DNA from: Candidatus Uhrbacteria bacterium RIFCSPLOWO2_01_FULL_47_17 | Lineage (GTDB): Bacteria; Patescibacteriota; Patescibacteriia; UBA9934; GWF2-40-263 | Direction: 5' to 3' | DNA: 64,000 nucleotides | NCBI GenBank assembly: GCA_001791305.1 | Contig: MGEI01000005.1 | Coordinates: forward strand, 146,698 to 210,697 | Position numbers and translations under genes: made by a program | The notes under the pieces: model-generated | Database searches by the model: none | Told to the model about the DNA's origin: nothing | What the model saw: only the letters and a program-made list of their open reading frames with translations | Shown: positions 2,375 through 41,779 of the stretch, one piece after another | How the letters are laid out: each line of letters starts with the position of its first letter | Numbering within the stretch: the stretch's first letter is position 1

Positions 2375-3190
2375 ATGACTCAACGTCTTGTTTTGATTAC
2401 TGCGTCCATCATGCTCATGCTTTCTGCCGCGTTTGGAGCCATCATCATGGCACCACCTGCACAAGCCGCATCGTTCACCTCTCTTTCAAACTTGAAATCC
2501 GGAGATCTTATTCGCGGAGAAAGTTTTACCGCGGTGTACTACTATGGTGTTGATGGTTTCCGCTACGTCTTTCCAAACGACAAAGCCTACTTCACCTGGT
2601 ACTCAAATTTTGACACCGTCAAATGGGTCACAGATGCAGATCTGACAACCATTCAAATCGGAGGAAACGTCACATACAAACCAGGCGTGAAGATGATCAA
2701 AATCAATTCAGATCCACGTGTCTACGTCGTAGCAAAGAGCGGACTCATTCGCGCCATTTCCTCTGAAACGGTTGCGAAAGCTCTGTACGGAACAACATGG
2801 AACAAACAAATTGACGACGTTGCAGATGGATTCTTCTCCAACTACAAAATTGGTGGAACGATCGATGACGCCTCCATGTTCAGCCCAACCTCAGAAAAAG
2901 CAGAAGCGGTTGATATCAATTTTGACAAAGGTTTGAAGGCAGCTGTCGTTGTTTCCATCACAGATACTGGATATTCTCCCGCAACTTTGAGCGTAAAAGC
3001 AGGAACCGCGGTCAAATTCGTTAACAACGGAACAACCAAACACACAGCAAGCGATGACGCTGGCGACTGGGGAACAGGAACCTTGAATCCAGGAGAATCA
3101 TTCTCTAAGTATTTCAAGACAGCTGCATCCCTCAACTTCCATGACGTTTACGGTTCTGCAAAAGCAACTCTCACCGTTACCCTTAATTAA
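2375..3190 (+). CDS. secreted protein, tandem paralog B
   Basis: signal peptide ending AQA; paralog of 1490..2299. Confidence 0.6.
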   Translation: MTQRLVLITASIMLMLSAAFGAIIMAPPAQAASFTSLSNLKSGDLIRGESFTAVYYYGVDGFRYVFPNDKAYFTWYSNFDTVKWVTDADLTTIQIGGNVTYKPGVKMIKINSDPRVYVVAKSGLIRAISSETVAKALYGTTWNKQIDDVADGFFSNYKIGGTIDDASMFSPTSEKAEAVDINFDKGLKAAVVVSITDTGYSPATLSVKAGTAVKFVNNGTTKHTASDDAGDWGTGTLNPGESFSKYFKTAASLNFHDVYGSAKATLTVTLN

Positions 3191-8265: not shown

Positions 8266-8396
8266 GGGTTGGCAAAGTTTGCAAGGTTGGCGAAAAAAAC
8301 TTTGGATTATCATCCGGAGTTTTTTGTTTCGTGATATAATTTCATCAATGAATTTTTTTCATGCAAACTTTGCCAACCTTGCAAACCTCGCCAACC
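8266..8396. promoter_or_regulatory. two inverted arrays of 9-bp repeats (GGTTGGCAA AGTTTGCAA GGTTGGCGA ... rc) flanking an extended -10 box (tgatataat, about 8330-8338) upstream of the second PfkB gene
   Basis: array 8266-8292 and inverted array 8362-8396; the same 9-mers recur at 26871-26960. Confidence 0.5.
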
Positions 8397-16562: not shown

Positions 16563-16868
16563 AATGTAAACTTGCTGTTCTCACGAACAACAATTGAAGA
16601 TCAACAGAACTTATTCTAAACCTAATTTTTTCTGGTACGTGCGTACTCTGTGAACTCTCTTATGCAAGAGAGGTTGTAGAGCTCGACCTATTAGTACTGC
16701 TCGGCTGAACATCTTACGATGCTTACACCTACAGCCTATCAACCTGCTAGTCTCGCAGGGGTCTCAAATGAAGACTTATCTTTGGATCGGCTTCACGCTT
16801 AGATGCTTTCAGCGTTTATCCGAACCGAACGTAGCTACCCAGCGATGCCCTTGGCAGGACAACTGGTG

Positions 16869-16908
<40 letters not shown>

Positions 16909-16944
16909 TGGATTCCATCAATCTTCGACGCCCATGGTAGATAG

Positions 16945-16996
<52 letters not shown>

Positions 16997-17027
16997 TGGC
17001 GAACAGCCAAACCCTTGGGACCTTCTA

Positions 17028-17063
<36 letters not shown>

Positions 17064-17604
17064 GAACCACGCCGTCGCTGTGGACGCTTGGGCGTGACTA
17101 GCCTGTTATCCCCGGAGTAGCTTTTATCCGATGAGCTTCCGCCGTCCTATTTCGTACGGTCGGATCACTAACTTCTGCTTTCGCAACTGCGCGACTTGTA
17201 AGTCTTGCAGTAAAGCTGGCTTCTGCGTTTGCACGTCCAGCGCGATTTCCATCCGCGCCAAGCCAACCTTTGTAAACGCCTCCGTTACATTTTGGGAGGC
17301 ACCCGCCCCAGGTAAACTACCCACCAGATCCTGTCCCTCCCTCCGGTTTCACGGAAGGTGGTTAGACTTTACACAACGCAAGGGTGGTATCTCACTGGTG
17401 CCCGAAGGCTCCCACCTATTCTGAACATGCGGAACATAAAATCAAGACCAAGTTGTAGTAAAGCTTCACGGGGTCTTTTCGTCTTACCACGGGAAGTGAG
17501 CATCTTCACTCACATTGCAATTTCGCCGAGTACATTGTTGAGAGAGTCTCCAAGTCGTTATGCCATTCGTGCAGGACGGAACTTACCCGTCAAGGAATTT
17601 CGCT

Positions 17605-18330
17605 CTTTGTTGTTACGATCCATTGATCGACGTAGTCATTTCTGCCACGTTCTGCATGTCACCATGCAGGTCGGACTCTATCTTCTTCGAAGGTTTCGAA
17701 GTCTGGCGTATAGTCTCTGAGGATTCCAGAAATTTTGATGGAACTTTTCGATTCATCAATTGGATAATCTTTGCAATTTCTTTCTGACCTTGATGATTCT
17801 TGTGCGTTCCTTCCTTCATCATTTGAAGGAGCTGAGCAAAGAGTTCAAAATCATTTTTCTTTGAAGTTTGCAAAGAGTATTTTTGGAAGAACGGAATAAT
17901 CTTCTCTCGAAGATCTTCTTGCGATCTTACACAATACTTTAGCAATGGTTCTCTGTGATTATCATGACGAGTGTTCTGATAAATCTGACCGCATCCGAAA
18001 TACTCACGAATGAGTTCCAGACTTGATCGACTTTTCATACCTTGTGTCACAACAAACTCAGGAAACACCTGCCATCCAAGGCTTGTGGTTTTGTTTCGAA
18101 TCAAACTGACTGAGAAGCAACCCTCTCCGTCAACAAATCCGCAAATCCACCACGCCATTTCTAGTCTTTCCTGCTGATTGTCTCGTTTTTTTATCATACT
18201 ATGGTTATATTTTACCATAGAGTGAACGAGGTGTTCCAGCATATAGCCAAATTTTTCTTTATCTACGTCTGTGAGGCATCACAGTTCGATAATGAGAGGT
18301 CATTCACCTCACTAAGGCAGCTTTTATTTC
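17605..18330 (-). mobile_element. 23S rRNA intron (likely group I) in domain IV, inserted within the conserved CCUAAGGU^AGCGAAAUUCC sequence, carrying a LAGLIDADG homing-endonuclease ORF
   Basis: 23S similarity breaks after ...caaggaatttcgct (17604) and resumes at accttaggacgattatagtt (18331); about 726 nt in between. Confidence 0.7.
17613..18242 (-). CDS. LAGLIDADG homing endonuclease (intron-encoded)
   Basis: WICGFVDGEGCFSVS motif (LAGLIDADG variant), 209 aa, entirely inside the 23S intron. Confidence 0.75.
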   Translation of the reverse strand: MLEHLVHSMVKYNHSMIKKRDNQQERLEMAWWICGFVDGEGCFSVSLIRNKTTSLGWQVFPEFVVTQGMKSRSSLELIREYFGCGQIYQNTRHDNHREPLLKYCVRSQEDLREKIIPFFQKYSLQTSKKNDFELFAQLLQMMKEGTHKNHQGQKEIAKIIQLMNRKVPSKFLESSETIRQTSKPSKKIESDLHGDMQNVAEMTTSINGS

Positions 18331-19182
18331 ACCTTAGGACGATTATAGTTATCGCCGGCGTTCATCCGCGCTTCAGTCGAAAGCTTTGACCCCGAAGGAT
18401 CTAACCCCCTTCCTTAACGTTCGGACACTGGCCAGGCATCAGCCCCTATACTTCACTTTGCAGTTTTGCAGGGACCTGTGTTTTTGGTAAACAGTCGCTT
18501 GGAGTCTTTCGCTGCGGGTCGCCCCCTCACAGGGGCAACCAGGCCTTATCCCGAAGTTACGGCCGTTGTTTTGCCGAGTTCCTAAACAATGTTTCTCTCG
18601 TACGCCTTAGTGCATTACGCACCCACTCACCTGTGTCGGTTTACGGTACGGGTCTCTATCACATTAGCCTTAGCGGCTTTTCTTGGCTCCGTGTTCTTTC
18701 CCCTTGTTTCCTGTTGCCAGAAAACTTGCGATCATATTCGTGCTCTGGATTAAACCAAGCGTGGTGGATTTGCCTGCCACGCGCCTAAATACGCCCAACG
18801 TCATAGCCATAGGACGCGGGAAATTTCACGAAGCGTCCCCGCTTCAGTGTGATAAAAAGTGCAGGAATATTAACCTGCTATGCATCGACTACGCCTTTCA
18901 GCCTCGCCTTAGCACCCGACTAACCCTGGGACGATTTGCGTTGCCCAGGAACCCTTAAGTTTACGGCGGACGGGGTTCTCACCCGTCTTTTTGCTACTCA
19001 TGCCAACATTCTCCCTTCGCATCGCTCCACCATGGGTCACCCCTTTGGCTTCAGCGCAATACGAATGCTCTCCTACCGCTTAACATTTAAAAATGTTAAA
19101 CCCTCAGCTTCGGCACATCATTTAGCCCCGGTACATTTTCGGCGCAGAAAAACTTGACCAGTGAGCTATTACGCTATCTTTA

Positions 19183-19213
<31 letters not shown>

Positions 19214-19792
19214 TTGTTTAAGTCTTTCCACCACCTTTTACACTTAATGATGATTTTGGGGCCTTAGCTTGAGATCTGGGCTGTTTCCCTTTCGACGTAT
19301 GGAGCTTAGCCCCCATCGTCTGACTGCCGGGAACACATGTTGGTATTCGGAGTTTGATTAGAGTCGCTACCCGAAGGCGCAAACTCGATTCAGTGCTCTA
19401 CCCCCAACACATTATTTACCGACGCTAGCCCAAAAGCTATCTCGGAGAGAACCAGCTATTACCGAGTTCGATTGGAATTTCTCCGCTATCCACAACTCAT
19501 CCCCGTGTTTTGCACGGCACGTGGGTTCGGCCCTCCACGAACTGTTACATTCGCTTCAGCCTGGTCATGGATAGGTCACCCGGTTTCGGGTTATGTGCGC
19601 GCCACCAATATTTCGCGGATTAACGCTCGCTTTCACTATGGCTTCGTCCCGGAGGACTTAACCAAGCGACGCACAACACACTCGTTGGCTCATTCTTCAA
19701 TAGGAACGCCATGACCCACTCTCCGCCTTGCGGCTTCGAGGGGCGCTGACTCCTTGTAAGTATACGATTTCAGATACTATTTCATTCCCCTT

Positions 19793-19826
<34 letters not shown>

Positions 19827-21094
19827 GTACACTATCGATCAGAACATGTATTTAGCTTTGCCAGATAGTCCCGGCAGATTCCTACAGGATTTCACGAGTC
19901 CCGTAGTACTCAAGAACAGTAATCATAATGACGTAATATATTTCGCGTACAGGACTTTCACCTTCTATGGTGTGACGTTCCAGTCACTTCCCCTATATAT
20001 TACATGGATTTCATTATCCGTTTTTTGAAGAAAACGACACTACCGTCTTACAACACCTATCTCTCGCAACGACTTCAATCTTTCGCATCCATTCACACAC
20101 AGTCTTGCGACTCCATGCTTACAAACACTTCACGAGAGAGGTTTGAGCTGTTCCCTTTTCGCTCGCCACTACTAAGGGAATCTATTCGTTTCGCGTTTCC
20201 ATACGACGTGCTGTCGGGTAAACCCGACTGGCCGCATGAAAACGTTAAACGAAATTGTTTTTTCTTTTCCTCTGGCTACTGAGATGTTTCACTTCACCAG
20301 GTGCCCTCCTTGCAACTATGTATTGATTGCAAAGTAATGCGGTATGAACCGCATTGGGTTGCCCCATTCGGATATCTTCGGATCAAAGGTTGTTTGCCAC
20401 CTCCCCGAAGCTTTTCGCAGGCTACTACGTCCTTCGTCGGCATGTTCTGTCAAGCCATCCTTCGTATACTCTTATTAATATGCTCTACAACCACTCTTAT
20501 TTAAGAGTGGTTCACTTCTTTGTGGTTTCTCTAATTCTGTTGATCTTCAATTGTAATGTTCGTGCGACCCTTGAAGGGTTTACCGAAATCTGTTTGATTC
20601 AAGGATCTGTTCTGGCCTTGAGGCCAGAGCTGAGCTACGACGCGAGAGTCGGAACTCAGCTCTAGGCACAAGAGACAAAGTGATGGAGTGGTTGAGTGGT
20701 GGAGTGAAGGTACTTGGCTTTTTGTTGAGAAGACACTATAAAACCGCCTTGTGGGCGGTCTTCAAGCAACAAAATTGTTACGATGAAGATCGTCCCTTAT
20801 ATTTGGTTTGCGTTACATGTGAACATATCCCCTTGTTCTCCGTAAGCTCCTTCTCCTCTCCATCCCATCAGCGGACCCATCTTCATGTGGGTCGATCAGC
20901 CAGATTATTCTTGGGACAAAGAAGAAGAAACGTATTCGATTTAAGTGGTGGAAGTTTAACGGAAGCCGAAAAGACTGTCAAGGGAATTTGTCCCAATTGT
21001 TTCCACAGGCATGTTTAACGATTTTATCTTGACAAAACCCCCATTTTCCGCTATGATTGTCTGATCCAAACGTTGGATCAACCAAGGAGGAGAG

Positions 21095-27617: not shown

Positions 27618-27718
27618 TTAAGAGGGTCCATGTCGAGGCATTGACATTTTGCACTTTTTTCCGTACAGTCCTTGGTCTTTGTAATCAAACAAAGGCAAAC
27701 CACCGGCGTGAGGCAACC

Positions 27719-28585
27719 ATGGGCAAACGACGCTTAAATGGCGAACATATCCAGGTTAGGCTTCCGGAAACCCTGTTTTCTCTTCCGGAAGGCTATACAG
27801 ACAAGCTCAGAGCTGCATCCTACAAAGGAGGCGAACGCACTGCTTCCATCTTGGAAAAAAAGGAAGCAATTTCGGAAGGCGAATTTGCCTTAGAACAAGA
27901 AACATACCGACAGATAGCGGGAGAAAATTTGGCCTTTTTCCATTTGCTGATGAGTTGTTATCTCTCGCGAATGGTTTACGACTTTGAGAGGATTGCTTTC
28001 GATCATCGAGCGAGTCTACGCAATAAATACCTCATTGCGGCCATGTCGCAAAAGGAGCTCACGATCGCGTGTCTATACCTGAAGCCAAAGATCATCCCCC
28101 ACATCCCCTCTTGGGACAAACACATCCACATGGGCTACAACGGCTGGTGGGCATCACACTTTTATGGAGCGGTGACCGTGGCGCGTGTCGCCCGGCGACT
28201 TTTACAAGAAGGAGCTGAGGTTCGACTTCCAACCGCCGCAGAGGACATCGATGACAAAATCGATCTCATCGCCTCATTCAAAGGACGATCGGAAGGTCTG
28301 TGCATGCAGATCAAGTCAGATGACCAGGTCGAGTGGATTCAACACCGCGTGTGTTCCGGACTCAATCCGAATCGTGAACCGGAATCGTTGCGACGCTTCC
28401 TCTTGGGAACGCGAAAATTCCAAGATCAATACCGCGGCATTTGGATTCCGATTGAACTCACCCTTGGCTCAAAGCCGTTTCAAGACGGAACAACCGTTTG
28501 GCGGGGTCCAATCGTTGATATTTTCCACACGATCCTTACAAAGGCGCTCGAAGAACACGACCCATCGCTTCGTGCGGCCATGTAA
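27719..28585 (+). CDS. uncharacterised protein, tandem paralog 1 (RHH-like N-terminus KRRxxGxxIQVRLPE)
   Basis: ATG 27719; paralogous to 28730..29629 (shared AxENLAFFHLLMS / AEENVGLYHLLLS, ARVxxxxxxxGAE, KIDLIASF..GLCMQIKS / RIDLLVRF..GLCVQIKT, GIWIPIELTLG / GMWFPLEIMIG). Confidence 0.55.
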   Translation: MGKRRLNGEHIQVRLPETLFSLPEGYTDKLRAASYKGGERTASILEKKEAISEGEFALEQETYRQIAGENLAFFHLLMSCYLSRMVYDFERIAFDHRASLRNKYLIAAMSQKELTIACLYLKPKIIPHIPSWDKHIHMGYNGWWASHFYGAVTVARVARRLLQEGAEVRLPTAAEDIDDKIDLIASFKGRSEGLCMQIKSDDQVEWIQHRVCSGLNPNREPESLRRFLLGTRKFQDQYRGIWIPIELTLGSKPFQDGTTVWRGPIVDIFHTILTKALEEHDPSLRAAM

Positions 28586-28595
28586 CTCCTCCTTC

Positions 28596-28640
28596 GACCC
28601 GCTTTGGGTCGTTTTTATTACGTCGCTCGCGAGCGACGTA
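28596..28640. terminator. hairpin terminator (gacccgctttgggtc + T-run) followed by a 20-bp perfect palindrome acgtcgctcgcgagcgacgt between the two paralogs
   Basis: read directly. Confidence 0.5.
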
Positions 28641-28729
28641 ATTTATTTGGAACGGTTGACAAACTCGTCTTTTTCACGTTAAATAGCTGGTCACCCCTTT
28701 CCGGGTGTCACATCAGAAGGAGGTTCTCT

Positions 28730-29629
28730 GTGGCCAAGCGTCGTTGTAAAGGCGCGTACGTCCGAATCGAGCTTCCGGACAAACGCACGACTCTTCCTGA
28801 AAATACAGCCGATCTTCTGAAAGAAGCGGCGGACTTTGCCATCTTGCGTGCTCACTCCATTTGGAAAATGTCCGAGCAAAACAAGCGTGGATGGATCACT
28901 TACATACAAATTAGCGAAGAAACATTTCGCGAAGATCGCGAACGATTTCAGGAAATCGCGGAAGAAAACGTCGGGCTTTATCATCTGCTCTTGTCCGTCT
29001 TTTTCACGAAGATTCATCAAGAAATGGAACCAAGAGCCTCGGCGCATAAAATTCGTACACGAAACGCGTACCTTTCGGCCGGAATGGCGCAACGAGAAAT
29101 CTCAAGCGCCTGCCTCTGTCTCAGCGAGGAGAGTGCGAGAACGATTCCTCAAATGAAATCTGAAACATTTGGAATCGATCCTCATATTTGGCTTACAGGC
29201 TTTATTGGAGGAAGGTCGGTTGCACGTGTGATTGCTGCATTCATGAATCGTGGGGCAGAAATCTTTTTCCCGACAGCGTACATCGACATTCAAGGTCGCA
29301 TCGATCTGTTGGTGCGATTCCCTGTGAATAGTCTTGGGCTGTGCGTACAGATCAAAACATTTCAGAACCTGAACCACATTCGTTATCGTCTCATCCCGGA
29401 AGTGCCTTATCATCAAATCAAGGAGCTGTCTGAAGACGATCAATACTTTCTGAAAGGCGTAACGGAATTCCGCAGCGACAATATCGGCATGTGGTTCCCT
29501 CTTGAAATCATGATCGGAGACGCGTCCTACACACAACGATACATCGATCCACCGCGTAACATTACTTACGCGTTTGATCGAATGCTCATGGATCTCTTCG
29601 AACACGCAAAAGAATTCGCAACCCCTTAA
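28730..29629 (+). CDS. uncharacterised protein, tandem paralog 2
   Basis: GTG start 28730, 6 nt after RBS aaggagg, aligning VAKRRCKGAYVRIELPD with MGKRRLNGEHIQVRLPE of paralog 1; the track ORF starts further upstream at 28604. Confidence 0.55.
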   Translation: MAKRRCKGAYVRIELPDKRTTLPENTADLLKEAADFAILRAHSIWKMSEQNKRGWITYIQISEETFREDRERFQEIAEENVGLYHLLLSVFFTKIHQEMEPRASAHKIRTRNAYLSAGMAQREISSACLCLSEESARTIPQMKSETFGIDPHIWLTGFIGGRSVARVIAAFMNRGAEIFFPTAYIDIQGRIDLLVRFPVNSLGLCVQIKTFQNLNHIRYRLIPEVPYHQIKELSEDDQYFLKGVTEFRSDNIGMWFPLEIMIGDASYTQRYIDPPRNITYAFDRMLMDLFEHAKEFATP

Positions 29630-29710
29630 CGCTTCCGCTGGAAGCGTTTTTTCTTTCCCAATTGAAAAATCTGAGCGTGTCGCGTACACTCGAAGCACAA
29701 ACGAACGAAT

Positions 29711-29837
29711 GATGAAACTTCCAAAATTGGTGCCTCGCGCCGTGCTGGAGGCAAAAAGATCGTGAGAGGTATCCTAAAATACCTCGAACAATTTTTTGCC
29801 GAAGCGCAAGCGAGGCGCCGATTTTGGAAGTTTCATC
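29711..29837 (+). other. structured leader: 28-bp inverted repeat (gatgaaacttccaaaattggtgcctcgc ... gcgaggcgccgattttggaagtttcatc) enclosing a structured loop of about 70 nt, ending 1 nt before tRNA-Leu(TAG)
   Basis: arms are near-perfect reverse complements; the same core IR (AAACTTCCAAAATTGG/CCGATTTTGGAAGTTT) precedes tRNA-Leu(TAA) at 39697-39822. Confidence 0.45.
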
Positions 29838-29922
29838 GCGAGCGTGGCGGAATTGGTATACGCACTAGCCTTAGGAGCTAGCGGAGCAATCCATGAGAGT
29901 TCGAGTCTCTCCGCTCGCACCA
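29838..29922 (+). tRNA. tRNA-Leu (anticodon TAG)
   Basis: GCGAGCGTGGCGGAATTGGTATACGCACTAGCCTTAGGAGCTAGCGGAGCAATCCATGAGAGTTCGAGTCTCTCCGCTCGCACCA; long variable arm, 3-bp D stem. Confidence 0.9.
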
Positions 29923-30125
29923 AAAAATCAGAACTGAAAAAATTATCCACACACCCACCATTGACAACAACAAAATTTTTTGATGAAATGTTTATACAAG
30001 AAATAAGAACTCCTAGATTGATCATATTCATCTGGGAGTTCTTTTTTGTTTCCAAAAAATGGAAACACGATCTGATCCATCGTCTTCACGTGCGCCGCGT
30101 GTTCATTCATTTTCATTCTGACCCT

Positions 30126-38938: not shown

Positions 38939-39676
38939 ATGCCCTCTCCTCTTCAAAAAATTGAATTGGCCTTGTGTGGACTTGCGATTGACGATCCAAA
39001 GTACAAAGCCTTTCGTCAGAAAACCACCAAACTGCGCGTGCTTGGCATTCGCGTGCCAGTACTTCAGAAATTAGTCTGCGACGGATTTCAGTTTTACAAC
39101 AAAACCGAAAAAGATATTTTGCATGTATGGAATGGCGTGTGGAACACAAGTCGCATGCACGAAGCGATGTATCTGCCATTGTTTTATTATCGCAACCACA
39201 AACACGTACTCGGCACATACGAATGGCACGTCATAAAAAAGTGGATTGACCGCGTGGAAAACTGGGAGCATGCGGATGCGCTTGCATACCTCTATTCCAT
39301 TTTGCTTGAACGCTATCCAAAACTCATTTTGCCGACACTCAAAAAATGGAATCGTTCGAACAATCCGTGGAAACAACGCATCTCGATTGTGTCTCTCATT
39401 TATTACGCCTCCAAAAACCGCAAAGCCCCGCCGGTTGGCCTTGTACTCAAAATGGTCGAACCCCTGATTCCGTCGAAAGACCCCTATGTGCGCAAGGCAG
39501 TCGGATGGACGCTGCGTGAAAGTTACAAGCTGTATCCAAAAGAAACGTTTGCGTTTCTAAAAAAGCACATCCAAGAATTAGCGGCCGTGAGTTTTTCGTA
39601 TGCGACAGAGCGAGTGACAAAGGAGCAGAAGACGGAGTTGAAACGAATGCGATCTCGACAAAAATCCAAATTCTGA
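38939..39676 (+). CDS. DNA alkylation repair protein (AlkC/AlkD-like HEAT-repeat glycosylase family)
   Basis: length and repeat pattern (WxxxRxxxL, VRKAVGWTLRE) typical of the DNA_alkylation family. Confidence 0.55.
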   Translation: MPSPLQKIELALCGLAIDDPKYKAFRQKTTKLRVLGIRVPVLQKLVCDGFQFYNKTEKDILHVWNGVWNTSRMHEAMYLPLFYYRNHKHVLGTYEWHVIKKWIDRVENWEHADALAYLYSILLERYPKLILPTLKKWNRSNNPWKQRISIVSLIYYASKNRKAPPVGLVLKMVEPLIPSKDPYVRKAVGWTLRESYKLYPKETFAFLKKHIQELAAVSFSYATERVTKEQKTELKRMRSRQKSKF

Positions 39677-39696
39677 TAATCTACAGCCCGTGCGTG

Positions 39697-39823
39697 CTAA
39701 AACTTTCCAAATTGGATGCAAAATTGTTGTGTTGCGAGCACCGCAAGTGAGCTGTACACGGAAGTACAGCGAACGCGGAGCACAGCGACACAACAATTTG
39801 GCGCCGATTTGGGAAGTTTTAGC
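39697..39823 (+). other. structured leader: inverted repeat ctaaaactttccaaattgg ... ccgatttgggaagttttag enclosing a nested-hairpin loop of about 90 nt, ending at the 5' end of tRNA-Leu(TAA)
   Basis: same IR core and same placement as 29711-29837. Confidence 0.45.
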
Positions 39824-39909
39824 GGGACAGTGGCGGAATGGTATACGCTCGACACTTAAAATGTCGTCTGGGAAACCGGGTGCGGGTTCGAGTCCCGCCT
39901 GTCCCACCA
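39824..39909 (+). tRNA. tRNA-Leu (anticodon TAA)
   Basis: GGGACAGTGGCGGAATGGTATACGCTCGACACTTAAAATGTCGTCTGGGAAACCGGGTGCGGGTTCGAGTCCCGCCTGTCCCACCA. Confidence 0.9.
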
Positions 39910-39910
39910 T

Positions 39911-39950
39911 CCTACGCTCTGGCTGTTTTCTATATCCAGAGCGTAGGATG
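39911..39950 (+). terminator. hairpin cctacgctctgg...ccagagcgtagg after the tRNA
   Basis: 12-bp perfect stem. Confidence 0.5.
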
Positions 39951-40711: not shown

Positions 40712-41779
40712 ATGATCGAACGCGAGGAATTCGAAGCACAATCTGATCTCTCGACAAGCTCAAGAAATAGTGAGGCAACCGTCACCCCAAGCGCTTCTCC
40801 CGAAGAGCGGGATTTTGAATTTTCGCTTCGTCCAAAAACGCTTGCCGAATTTGTCGGGCAAGAGGGATTAAAAGAGAACTTGACCGTATTCATGCAAGCG
40901 GCAAAAAAGCGTGAGGAACCGATCGAACATGTGCTTCTCTACGGAAACCCGGGGCTTGGAAAAACCACCCTTGCGCACATCATTGCAACAGAAATGGGTT
41001 CACAGATTCGTGTGACGTCGGGCCCCGCCCTCGAGAAAGTTGGCGACCTTGCCGCGATCCTCTCAAACCTCCAGAAAGGCGATATTCTTTTTATCGACGA
41101 AATCCACCGCATCAATAAAACGATCGAGGAAGTTTTGTATCCTGCGATGGAAGACTATGCGCTCGACATTATTGTCGGCAAAGGCCCGACCGCTCGTACA
41201 CTTCGCATCAACCTTGAACACTTTACGATCATTGGAGCGACAACACGCCTCTCGCTTTTATCCGCACCACTTCGAGATCGTTTCGGCATGGTGCACCACT
41301 TGGATTTTTACACGCGCGATGATCTTGCAATCATCTTACGTCGCAATGCGAATCTGCTTCGATCCCCCATTCACGAAGACGCGGTCGAACTCCTCGCGAT
41401 GCGCTCGCGTCTGACTCCACGTATTGCAAACCGCATGCTCCGCCGTGCACGCGATTTTGCGCAAGTGAAAGGTGACGGTTCGATTACACCCGATCTCTGT
41501 CGCGATGCGCTTGCCATGATGCGCGTGGATGAAGAAGGCTTGGACGCCGTTGATCGCCACATTCTCACAACCATCATGGAAAAATTCCAAGGCGGACCCG
41601 TTGGACTCTCCACCATTGCCGCCGCGACGCAAGAAGAAATGGAAACGATTGAGGATGTCCACGAGCCTTACTTACTCCAACTCGGCTTCCTCGCACGAAC
41701 CCCGCGCGGACGCGTCGCCACAGATCGCGCCTACAAACACCTCGGCCGCGATATCCCAGAACAAAGTCGTCTGATATAA
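40712..41779 (+). CDS. ruvB: Holliday junction branch-migration ATPase RuvB
   Basis: [24 protein letters not shown], sensor/arginine motifs. Confidence 0.9.

Follow-up and report, generated by a model that had tools for sequence, protein, structure and literature searches.

A hairpin repeat dispersed across the Parcubacteria lies flush against two tRNA-Leu genes of an Uhrbacteria genome

In a 64,000-nt stretch of the genome of Candidatus Uhrbacteria bacterium RIFCSPLOWO2_01_FULL_47_17 (assembly GCA_001791305.1, contig MGEI01000005.1, positions 146,698 to 210,697, forward strand; hereafter, the window), two tRNA-Leu genes are each preceded by a long inverted repeat. Is this repeat a device of leucine tRNA genes? 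A preliminary description, made from the sequence alone, had argued for a functional RNA element that is specific to Leu isoacceptors. We conclude instead that it is an apparently undescribed hairpin repeat that occurs across the Parcubacteria, and that it has nothing specifically to do with leucine. (Uhrbacteria belong to the Parcubacteria group of the Patescibacteria, or candidate phyla radiation, CPR.) Membership of both hairpins in one family, the dispersal of that family, its presence or absence at orthologous sites, covariation of its paired positions, the asymmetry of its two strands, and its fixed polarity are established. Our favoured reading, to which we give a probability of about 0.55, is that the hairpins are copies of a dispersed, mobile or persistent palindromic family of ~120-130 nt that resembles REPINs.

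The first copy is an inverted repeat with arms of 28 nt (29711-29738 and 29810-29837) that are 93% complementary and have 71 nt between them; both mismatches are G-U pairs on the + strand. Its 3' arm stops at position -1 of tRNA-Leu(TAG), which ARAGORN and Rfam both place at 29838-29922, so that zero unpaired bases lie ahead of G1 of the tRNA. A second copy abuts tRNA-Leu(TAA) in the same arrangement. The core of the repeat occurs four times in the window, where 0.2 occurrences are expected by chance (0 of 100 shuffles reached 4), and these occurrences are the four arms. A covariance model run with filters off found no further copies in the window, and none at its tRNA-Ala, tRNA-Gly, and tRNA-Ser genes. 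The preliminary description was thus right about the repeat, its junction with the tRNA, the matching core at the other tRNA-Leu, and its absence from the other three tRNAs. The interior that it described as a structured loop of ~70 nt is not a loop, however: it is itself almost fully paired, which makes each element a rod of 127-128 nt. The features around the two copies are as follows.

29662..29690, + strand: promoter-like site TTGAAA-17 nt-TACACT, upstream of copy 1 (consensus scan; kept in the related loci L007 and L014)
29711..29837, + strand: hairpin copy 1, a 127-nt rod whose A strand is the + strand (covariance model, 106 bits, E = 4e-21)
29711-29738 with 29810-29837: basal helix of copy 1
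29764-29765 with 29786-29787: GA/GA loop of copy 1
29766-29785: apical stem-loop of copy 1
29838..29922, + strand: tRNA-Leu(TAG), with CCA encoded (ARAGORN; Rfam RF00005, 59.1 bits)
39638..39665, + strand: weakly supported promoter-like site TTGAAA-16 nt-AAAAAT, within the 3' end of the upstream open reading frame (ORF), which is DNA-alkylation-repair-like (consensus scan only)
39696..39823, + strand: hairpin copy 2, a 128-nt rod whose A strand is the + strand (covariance model, 93.9 bits)
39824..39909, + strand: tRNA-Leu(TAA) (ARAGORN; Rfam, 60.5 bits)

Both copies fold far better than expected: the minimum free energy is -79.4 kcal/mol for copy 1 (z = -14.1) and -76.7 kcal/mol for copy 2 (z = -13.4), and in each case 0 of 200 shuffles fold as well. 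The copies have in common ~20 bp at the base and the shape of the apex (GUGAG, a 7-bp stem, a 6-nt loop, and CGAAC), while their interior sequences are unrelated. The basal helix is 28 bp long in copy 1 and 20 bp in copy 2. A metagenome contig (L033) carries a copy that is identical to copy 2.

We also noted two features next to these copies. Directly upstream of copy 1 are two tandem paralogous ORFs (27641-28585 and 28604-29629) of unassigned function, which have in common the motif ...RIDL..F......LC.QIK... A perfect 15-bp hairpin (CATCCTACGCTCTGG with CCAGAGCGTAGGATG, 39908-39950) begins inside the CCA end of tRNA-Leu(TAA), and no run of T follows it.

The element is dispersed well beyond the window, at ~30 other Parcubacteria loci. 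A two-arm DNA search pattern, ACTTNCNAAAYTGG N{75,100} CCRRTTTNGNAAG, found 22 stretches among species-representative genomes and a further 15 among metagenomes. Viral contigs had no match to it, and virus, phage, and plasmid collections that were searched for the element gave zero matches. Four or five of the 37 matches do not fold and arose by chance (L009, L011, L027, L041, and probably L037); the others are rods of 115-130 nt from Parcubacteria. The element is found in Uhr-, Kaiser-, and Zambryskibacteria, Paceibacterota, and Minisyncoccia, and also in two metagenome-assembled genomes (MAGs) labelled 'Gammaproteobacteria' that are probably mis-binned. Rfam 15 had nothing for the element at the gathering threshold, in scans of the whole window and 16 related loci (E-value scans of the two copies gave noise), and we found no published description of the element.

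We aligned 25 copies in one orientation (alignment A1) and built a covariance model (R1) from them. R1 recovers every copy, along with diverged ones in L008, L017, L018, L019, L021, and L034, and its later matches were in L047, L051, and L052/L053. The L051 copy (74 bits) has a different basal helix, TAAAACTGACAGAATCAG with CTGATTCTGTCAGTTTTA, which is fully co-varied. Because of this copy, the 'invariant' basal columns of A1 must partly be an artefact of the search pattern. What is truly conserved across the family is the structure and the apical module.

Some genomes have several copies. One Kaiserbacteria MAG gave three pattern matches on three contigs, and the element forms clusters in L008, L017, L018, L019, and L034. 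Copies are solitary or ~0.5-1.7 kb apart. Overall, the copy number looks low (2 in the 64-kb window; the genome pieces scanned were 8-20 kb). Members of one subfamily occur at non-orthologous sites: the copy at tRNA-His in L006 belongs with window copy 1 at tRNA-Leu, and the copies in L005, L030, and L008 are of one subfamily but follow three different genes. In another subfamily, from a single metagenome (L028 1019-1156, L035 1676-1813, and L039 1506-1643), the stem extends outward to ~158 nt (AGCATCGTGTCATTAATAACTTTCC...), and zero copies of it are flush against a gene.

The hairpin structure is under selection and is not a product of chance. In A1, standard pairs fill 93.1% of the cells (76.8% in shuffles), two-sided changes are seen in 22 of 35 pairs, and the covariation score is 0.474, compared with 0.175 for shuffled alignments (0 of 500 reach 0.474) and at most 0.098 if the partners are slid by 1-3 columns. 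The family layout combines a basal helix and an apical GA/GA-CGUAC module, both conserved, with an interior between them that is variable yet always paired. The apical module, GA-G(N)CGUAY...RUACG(G/U)U-GA, is kept even in diverged members. At the other end, the outermost 3-6 bp vary and co-vary (columns 5-8 with 132-135), and conservation begins inside them, unlike in the terminal repeats of transposons.

The two strands are not equivalent. In 30 of 30 copies, one strand, which we call the A strand, folds better than its complement, by ~12 kcal/mol on average. The A strand has 109 G-U pairs and the complement has 41. Other features of the A strand are a bulged A after UUGG, a conserved U-G pair, further G-U pairs, and tandem GA/GA internal loops.

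If the element belonged to tRNA-Leu genes, then relatives should keep it there. We collected contigs from relatives through homologues of RuvB (window 40712-41779), whose nearest matches are proteins named Candidatus Uhrbacteria. In another Uhrbacteria genome (L002, GCA_016219925, RuvB 73% identical), the gene order is kept and both tRNA-Leu(TAG) and tRNA-Leu(TAA) are present, but the hairpin is absent from both, and promoter-like sequence lies directly upstream of each. The hairpin is also absent from tRNA-Leu(TAA) in L001 and in L003, which is the closest relative by RuvB (91% identity) and has a nearly identical tRNA. The preliminary description had named the lack of the hairpin upstream of tRNA-Leu in relatives as evidence against a Leu element, and these sites in L001, L002, and L003 are indeed empty. 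In L003, the place that the hairpin takes in the window is occupied by an ORF for an HNH endonuclease (2592-3065), which ends 2 nt before tRNA-Leu(TAA). The 5' side of this tRNA appears to be an insertion hotspot.

One of these sites allows the empty and filled versions to be aligned to the nucleotide. At tRNA-Leu(TAA), L002 reads '...tgcgt|gggcgag' and the window reads '...tgcgt|[128 nt]|gggacag'. In both, the spacer that follows the DNA-alkylation gene ends in '...tgcgt'. At this one comparable site, copy 2 is a precise insertion at -1/+1 of the tRNA with zero duplication.

Where relatives do have the element at tRNA-Leu(TAG), its structure has been maintained in place. L007 and L014 are orthologous loci with 2 and 6 compensatory pair changes, respectively, relative to copy 1. 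Copy 1 and the L014 copy are 80% identical, and besides the 6 compensatory pairs there are 3 one-sided changes that preserve pairing. (The adjacent tRNAs are identical at 84 of 85 positions.)

We mapped the neighbours of the copies with ARAGORN, ORFs, and Pfam, and found a strict placement rule. In ~25 copies, the 3' end of the A strand lies -1 to +7 nt from a gene boundary. In 8 copies, this boundary is the 5' end of a tRNA on the same strand: Leu-TAG (3 genomes), Leu-TAA, Met (3 genomes), and Lys. In 2 copies, it is the CCA end of a convergent tRNA (His and Arg). In ~15 copies, it is the stop codon of a convergent ORF. These ORFs are real genes: they encode NusG (twice), L11 (twice), EF-G, RpoD, NDK, DEAD-box helicases (twice), PilB, PilC, SIMPL, an MFS transporter, a GH130 enzyme, and a pilin-like protein with a precomputed N_methyl match. 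Among the mapped copies, the free end of the element is never flush against a verified gene, and the nearest is 12 nt away. (The exceptions to the rule are L016, which lies antisense in a 16S-tRNA-Ile spacer; L022; L024; the L028/L035/L039 subfamily; and L051, which is 75 nt after nusG.) Thus, the proposed specificity for Leu isoacceptors fails, as does confinement of the core to tRNA sites: the ~15 copies after stop codons have no tRNA nearby and the element is a generic repeat.

We found no conserved target sequence or duplication at the flush end. Nor did we find a promoter motif common to the upstream sides of all copies; in the ORF class, terminators lie 10-25 nt upstream instead. Read along the mRNA, the order in this class is the stop codon, the element in its weaker orientation, 10-25 nt, and then a canonical and often bidirectional terminator; separate canonical terminators lie 3' of the element in L010 and L017. 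This order makes the element part of the 3' untranslated region. As the terminator is only 10-25 nt from the 5' end of the A strand, an independent A-strand promoter is unlikely in these cases.

The polarity might follow the genes or it might follow replication. The A strand has a negative GC skew in 21 of the 26 loci, among them every one of the 8 with a copy at a tRNA 5' end, which hints that the tRNAs concerned are on the lagging strand or that the orientation is tied to replication. However, L008 has two copies in opposite orientations, each convergent with its own gene, and L038 also disagrees. So, although the two rules are confounded, the gene-linked polarity explains more cases.

In an unbiased sample of four further genomes, obtained through L11 homologues, two have the element downstream of nusG with the same polarity and two do not. 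The table of L11 homologues also shows that many rplK-bearing contigs in public assemblies are only 0.5-1.1 kb long, which would be consistent with assemblies that break at repeats flanking rplK on either side in many Parcubacteria.

What would the hairpins do at the tRNA-Leu genes of the window? A consensus scan found the pair TTGAAA-17-TACACT 19 nt upstream of copy 1. The orthologous loci L007 and L014 keep the two hexamers at the same distance of 17 nt, with a different sequence between them. With this conserved pair upstream, the hairpin should be inside the primary transcript of tRNA-Leu(TAG) and, as far as the sequence indicates, should begin ~10 nt into it. The 229-nt precursor (29697-29925) is predicted to fold into the rod and a cloverleaf, and the base of the hairpin meets the acceptor stem with no unpaired base in between. 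RNase P must cut this junction between hairpin and tRNA. A leader that is paired right up to -1 is an unusual substrate for it. RNase III acts on near-perfect RNA duplexes of ~20 bp or more, and the basal duplexes of the window copies, at 20-28 bp, are long enough for it to open them first. We infer that the hairpin is transcribed with the tRNA and removed by RNase P, with or without the help of RNase III.

Putting these together, we propose that two copies of a REPIN-like element inserted exactly at -1/+1 of two tRNA-Leu genes, between promoter and tRNA. Because of where it sits, each copy would be transcribed as a 5' leader hairpin of its tRNA-Leu, and RNase P would release the tRNA by cutting at the base of the hairpin, perhaps once RNase III has opened the basal helix of 20-28 bp. 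Movement of the element may pass through a single-stranded intermediate; a Y1/HUH transposase is a candidate mobiliser only. A small mobile hairpin was among the candidates in the preliminary description, and this comes close to what we found, except that the element does not target the flanks of tRNA-Leu in particular. Similarly, its proposal of a functional RNA element was right in that the structure is selected, but the argument for a Leu-related leader or processing signal is not upheld.

REPINs have conserved inverted blocks and a spacer that is constrained by its length and by its capacity to form a hairpin, with common compensatory changes (PMC3116915). In the 25-copy alignment, our element likewise has two conserved inverted blocks and a variable spacer that is kept pairable. 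Like REPINs, it is extragenic and multi-copy, it has subfamilies, and it persists for a long time in lineages (PMC3116915; PMC5581495). Also, RAYT-like Y1/HUH genes (PF01797) are widespread and highly conserved in the Parcubacteria. On the other hand, our element is longer than a REPIN and the whole rod is paired, its basal sequence is common to several candidate phyla of the Parcubacteria group, and it has a strict polarity with one end flush at tRNA ends or stop codons. Its copy number also looks low, at 2 in 64 kb; REPIN/RAYT systems have tens to hundreds of copies per genome.

REPINs almost always flank their RAYT (PMC5581495). We searched the element loci by tblastn with two IS200/RAYT protein sequences and obtained one real Y1 match, in L005 (Pfam Y1_Tnp PF01797, 67 bits), 7 kb from the element. 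It represents a RAYT-like Y1/HUH protein of 220-227 amino acids for which there were 3590 matches at E <= 1e-10 (many on contigs of ~1 kb); identities are 63-79% across Kaiser-, Lloyd-, and Nomurabacteria and other Parcubacteria. Judged from these sequences, such abundance and identity is the behaviour of a domesticated gene. We chose three independent places to look for the element beside it (L042/L043, L044-L046, and L047-L049), where the Y1_Tnp genes are:

L042, 10001-10663: Y1_Tnp gene
L044, 10001-10666: Y1_Tnp gene
L047, 10001-10675: Y1_Tnp gene

Several observations weigh against the REPIN-like reading. First, the covariance model found no element adjoining the Y1_Tnp genes at these three loci. 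As the Y1 genes are not flanked by the element, membership in the REPIN/RAYT system is not established. (At 2 of the 3 places, a copy would not fit, since the gene is bordered by intergenic gaps of just 53-91 nt.) More generally, no mobilising gene linked to the element was found in the loci examined. Second, where the element follows a protein-coding gene, it is the less stable strand that ends up in the mRNA, with the stop codon on one side and a separate intrinsic terminator on the other; no simple explanation at the level of RNA accounts for the strand asymmetry of every copy. Third, we know of no precedent in REP, MITE (miniature inverted-repeat transposable element), or REPIN elements for flush placement of one end only, and a REPIN-like model leaves this placement unexplained. 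Finally, the element is downstream of nusG in 4 of 6 sampled genomes (L019 is an unverified fifth case), and this recurrence could reflect a conserved host function rather than mobility.

Beside the Y1 gene of L044, there are other inverted repeats (GCGGAGCAC...).

Other mobile elements offer partial likenesses. IS200/IS605 elements and their palindromic derivatives have no strict terminal inverted repeats, make no target duplication, form strand-specific hairpins, and abut their target at one end, and the possible replication-related bias in orientation (negative A-strand GC skew at 21 of the 26 loci) would also be shared with them. IS608 has a single-stranded mechanism (as cited in PMC3116915). 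However, our element has no conserved 4-5-nt target at its flush end, it is one whole hairpin rather than two subterminal ones, and no tnpA or tnpB is linked to it. Also, its better-folding strand is found on the C-rich strand, whereas the IS608 model would put it on the other one.

ERIC (~127 bp), the Correia elements of Neisseria, and the pneumococcal RUP elements are similar in being ~100-150 bp, hairpin-forming, intergenic, and co-transcribed with their neighbours. Transcripts of Correia hairpins are substrates of RNase III. Our element differs from them in that its extreme termini are not conserved, it has no target-site duplication at the one comparable site, and its interiors differ completely between copies yet stay paired. 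A MITE in the usual sense was rejected on the first two of these grounds (conservation begins 3-6 bp inside).

We also considered two structures of other kinds. TIGR arrays lie beside a Tas gene and consist of tandem units that have box C/D motifs as well as two unpaired spacers (PMC12045711); we considered TIGR-Tas as it is common in CPR and is built on kink-turns. It was rejected: there are no RUGAUGA/CUGA box C/D motifs, the interiors are paired, and the copies are not tandem. An intrinsic terminator was rejected as well. There is no consistent T run after either strand, separate terminators are present (L010 and L017), and the window copies lie between promoter and tRNA.

The most novel alternative to a REPIN-like family concerns the placement itself. 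It is possible, though we would not bet on it, that this is a new kind of element: undescribed, strand-asymmetric, Parcubacteria-wide, and placed by a polarity-aware mechanism exactly where highly expressed genes have their mature ends, at -1/+1 or the CCA end of a tRNA or at a stop codon. If so, then it would imply either a new mechanism of integration from a single strand (of DNA or RNA) that senses such boundaries or a new cis-acting module that defines RNA ends in reduced genomes.

A second alternative, which we consider rather unlikely, is that the element is a structural module of the host that acts in cis and is kept by selection instead of by selfish spread. A long duplex that is flush with the ends of RNAs or ORFs could direct processing by RNase III or exonucleases, insulate highly expressed units, or couple the termination of translation to the fate of the mRNA. 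The neighbours are highly expressed units (tRNAs, the rRNA spacer, nusG, rplK, fusA, rpoD, and ndk), and both the flush placement at stop codons and tRNA ends and the recurrence after nusG in several genomes would be expected of such a module. So would the maintenance of the structure at the orthologous Leu(TAG) locus, and RNase III could act on a basal helix of this length (18-28 bp). In E. coli, REPs located at most ~15 nt from a stop codon reportedly lower expression via ribosome stalling (a result ascribed to Liang, Rudd and Deutscher, 2015). However, close relatives manage without the element at the same tRNA-Leu sites. Also, the gene-adjacent RNA sequence is not the same in leaders and trailers, which are complementary strands: what is constant is the end of the DNA, not the end of the RNA. 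In the ORF class, the better-folding strand is antisense to the mRNA, and in the cases checked, there is a separate terminator 3' of the element.

Third, the element could be a gene for a small structured RNA whose product is the A strand. At tRNA loci it would form a dicistron, with its 3' end set by RNase P, and elsewhere it would be a convergent gene, tail-to-tail with its neighbour. This would account for the preference for the A strand in 30 of 30 copies, for the G-U pairs and tandem GA loops that are typical of RNA, and for the apical module that even diverged members keep. The need for a promoter on the 5' side would also give a free 5' side and a flush 3' side. We nevertheless think that it is improbable, as the ORF class leaves just 10-25 nt between the 5' end of the A strand and a bidirectional terminator, there is no shared promoter motif, genomes have many diverged copies, and Rfam has no match.

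Fourth, the element might be an attC-like site or another folded single-stranded DNA site for some recombinase. As in attC, structure matters more than sequence, the base reads AAC...GTT, the folding is strand-specific, and the element is found right after stop codons. More specifically, its 120-130 nt are within the size range of chromosomal attC sites, conservation is concentrated at the base of the hairpin (with the conserved core AAC at the start and GTT at the end), there is a bulged base near the base of the stem, and insertion occurs without duplication. Where the element starts at the stop codon of an ORF, its better-folding strand is opposite to the ORF, like the bottom strands of attC. 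But the R-box consensus RYYYAAC/GTTRRRY does not match, as the ends read RRAAC...GTTYY; there is no unpaired central spacer, and the basal helix runs without a break for 18-28 bp. Instead of cassettes, the element has core housekeeping genes and tRNAs as its neighbours (and it also lies flush against the tRNAs), and we saw no integrase or cassette array in any locus. We therefore reject an integron attC site, and consider any broader version of this idea to be very improbable.

Finally, a Leu-responsive or Leu-specific leader or processing determinant can be dismissed: both window copies do precede a tRNA-Leu and the other three tRNAs lack the element, but the same element is found at tRNA-Met, -Lys, -His, and -Arg and after many ORFs, and relatives lack it at both tRNA-Leu sites.

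The window has other features that are unrelated to the family. Another inverted repeat of ~125 nt (8269-8394, - strand) has repeated GGTTGGCAAAGTTTGCAA-like units that flank an AT-rich centre; it is not a family member, as its score against the hairpin model is weak (24 bits, E ~0.002-0.009). The 23S rRNA gene (16670-20485, - strand) is ~890 nt longer than the Rfam model, and the extra part encodes an ORF of 209 amino acids (17613-18242, - strand) with the LAGLIDADG-type motif GFVDGEGCF. This suggests an intron with a homing endonuclease. There is no 16S gene adjacent to the 23S-5S pair in the window.

A large share of bacterial diversity belongs to the CPR, whose genomes are ~1 Mb and whose non-coding elements are almost unexplored. 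In such compact genomes, a repeat that is structured, compensated, placed at gene boundaries, and present across several candidate phyla is unexpected. It is useful as a marker for annotation, as it accounts for ORFs that are called spuriously, and contigs that break, near rplK and tRNAs. It also cautions that inverted repeats beside CPR tRNAs are members of a family and not gene-specific regulators. At the tRNA-Leu genes, it provides a natural substrate with which to ask how RNase P deals with a leader whose bases are paired all the way to -1, and across the Parcubacteria, it is a test case for the persistence of REPIN-like replicators.

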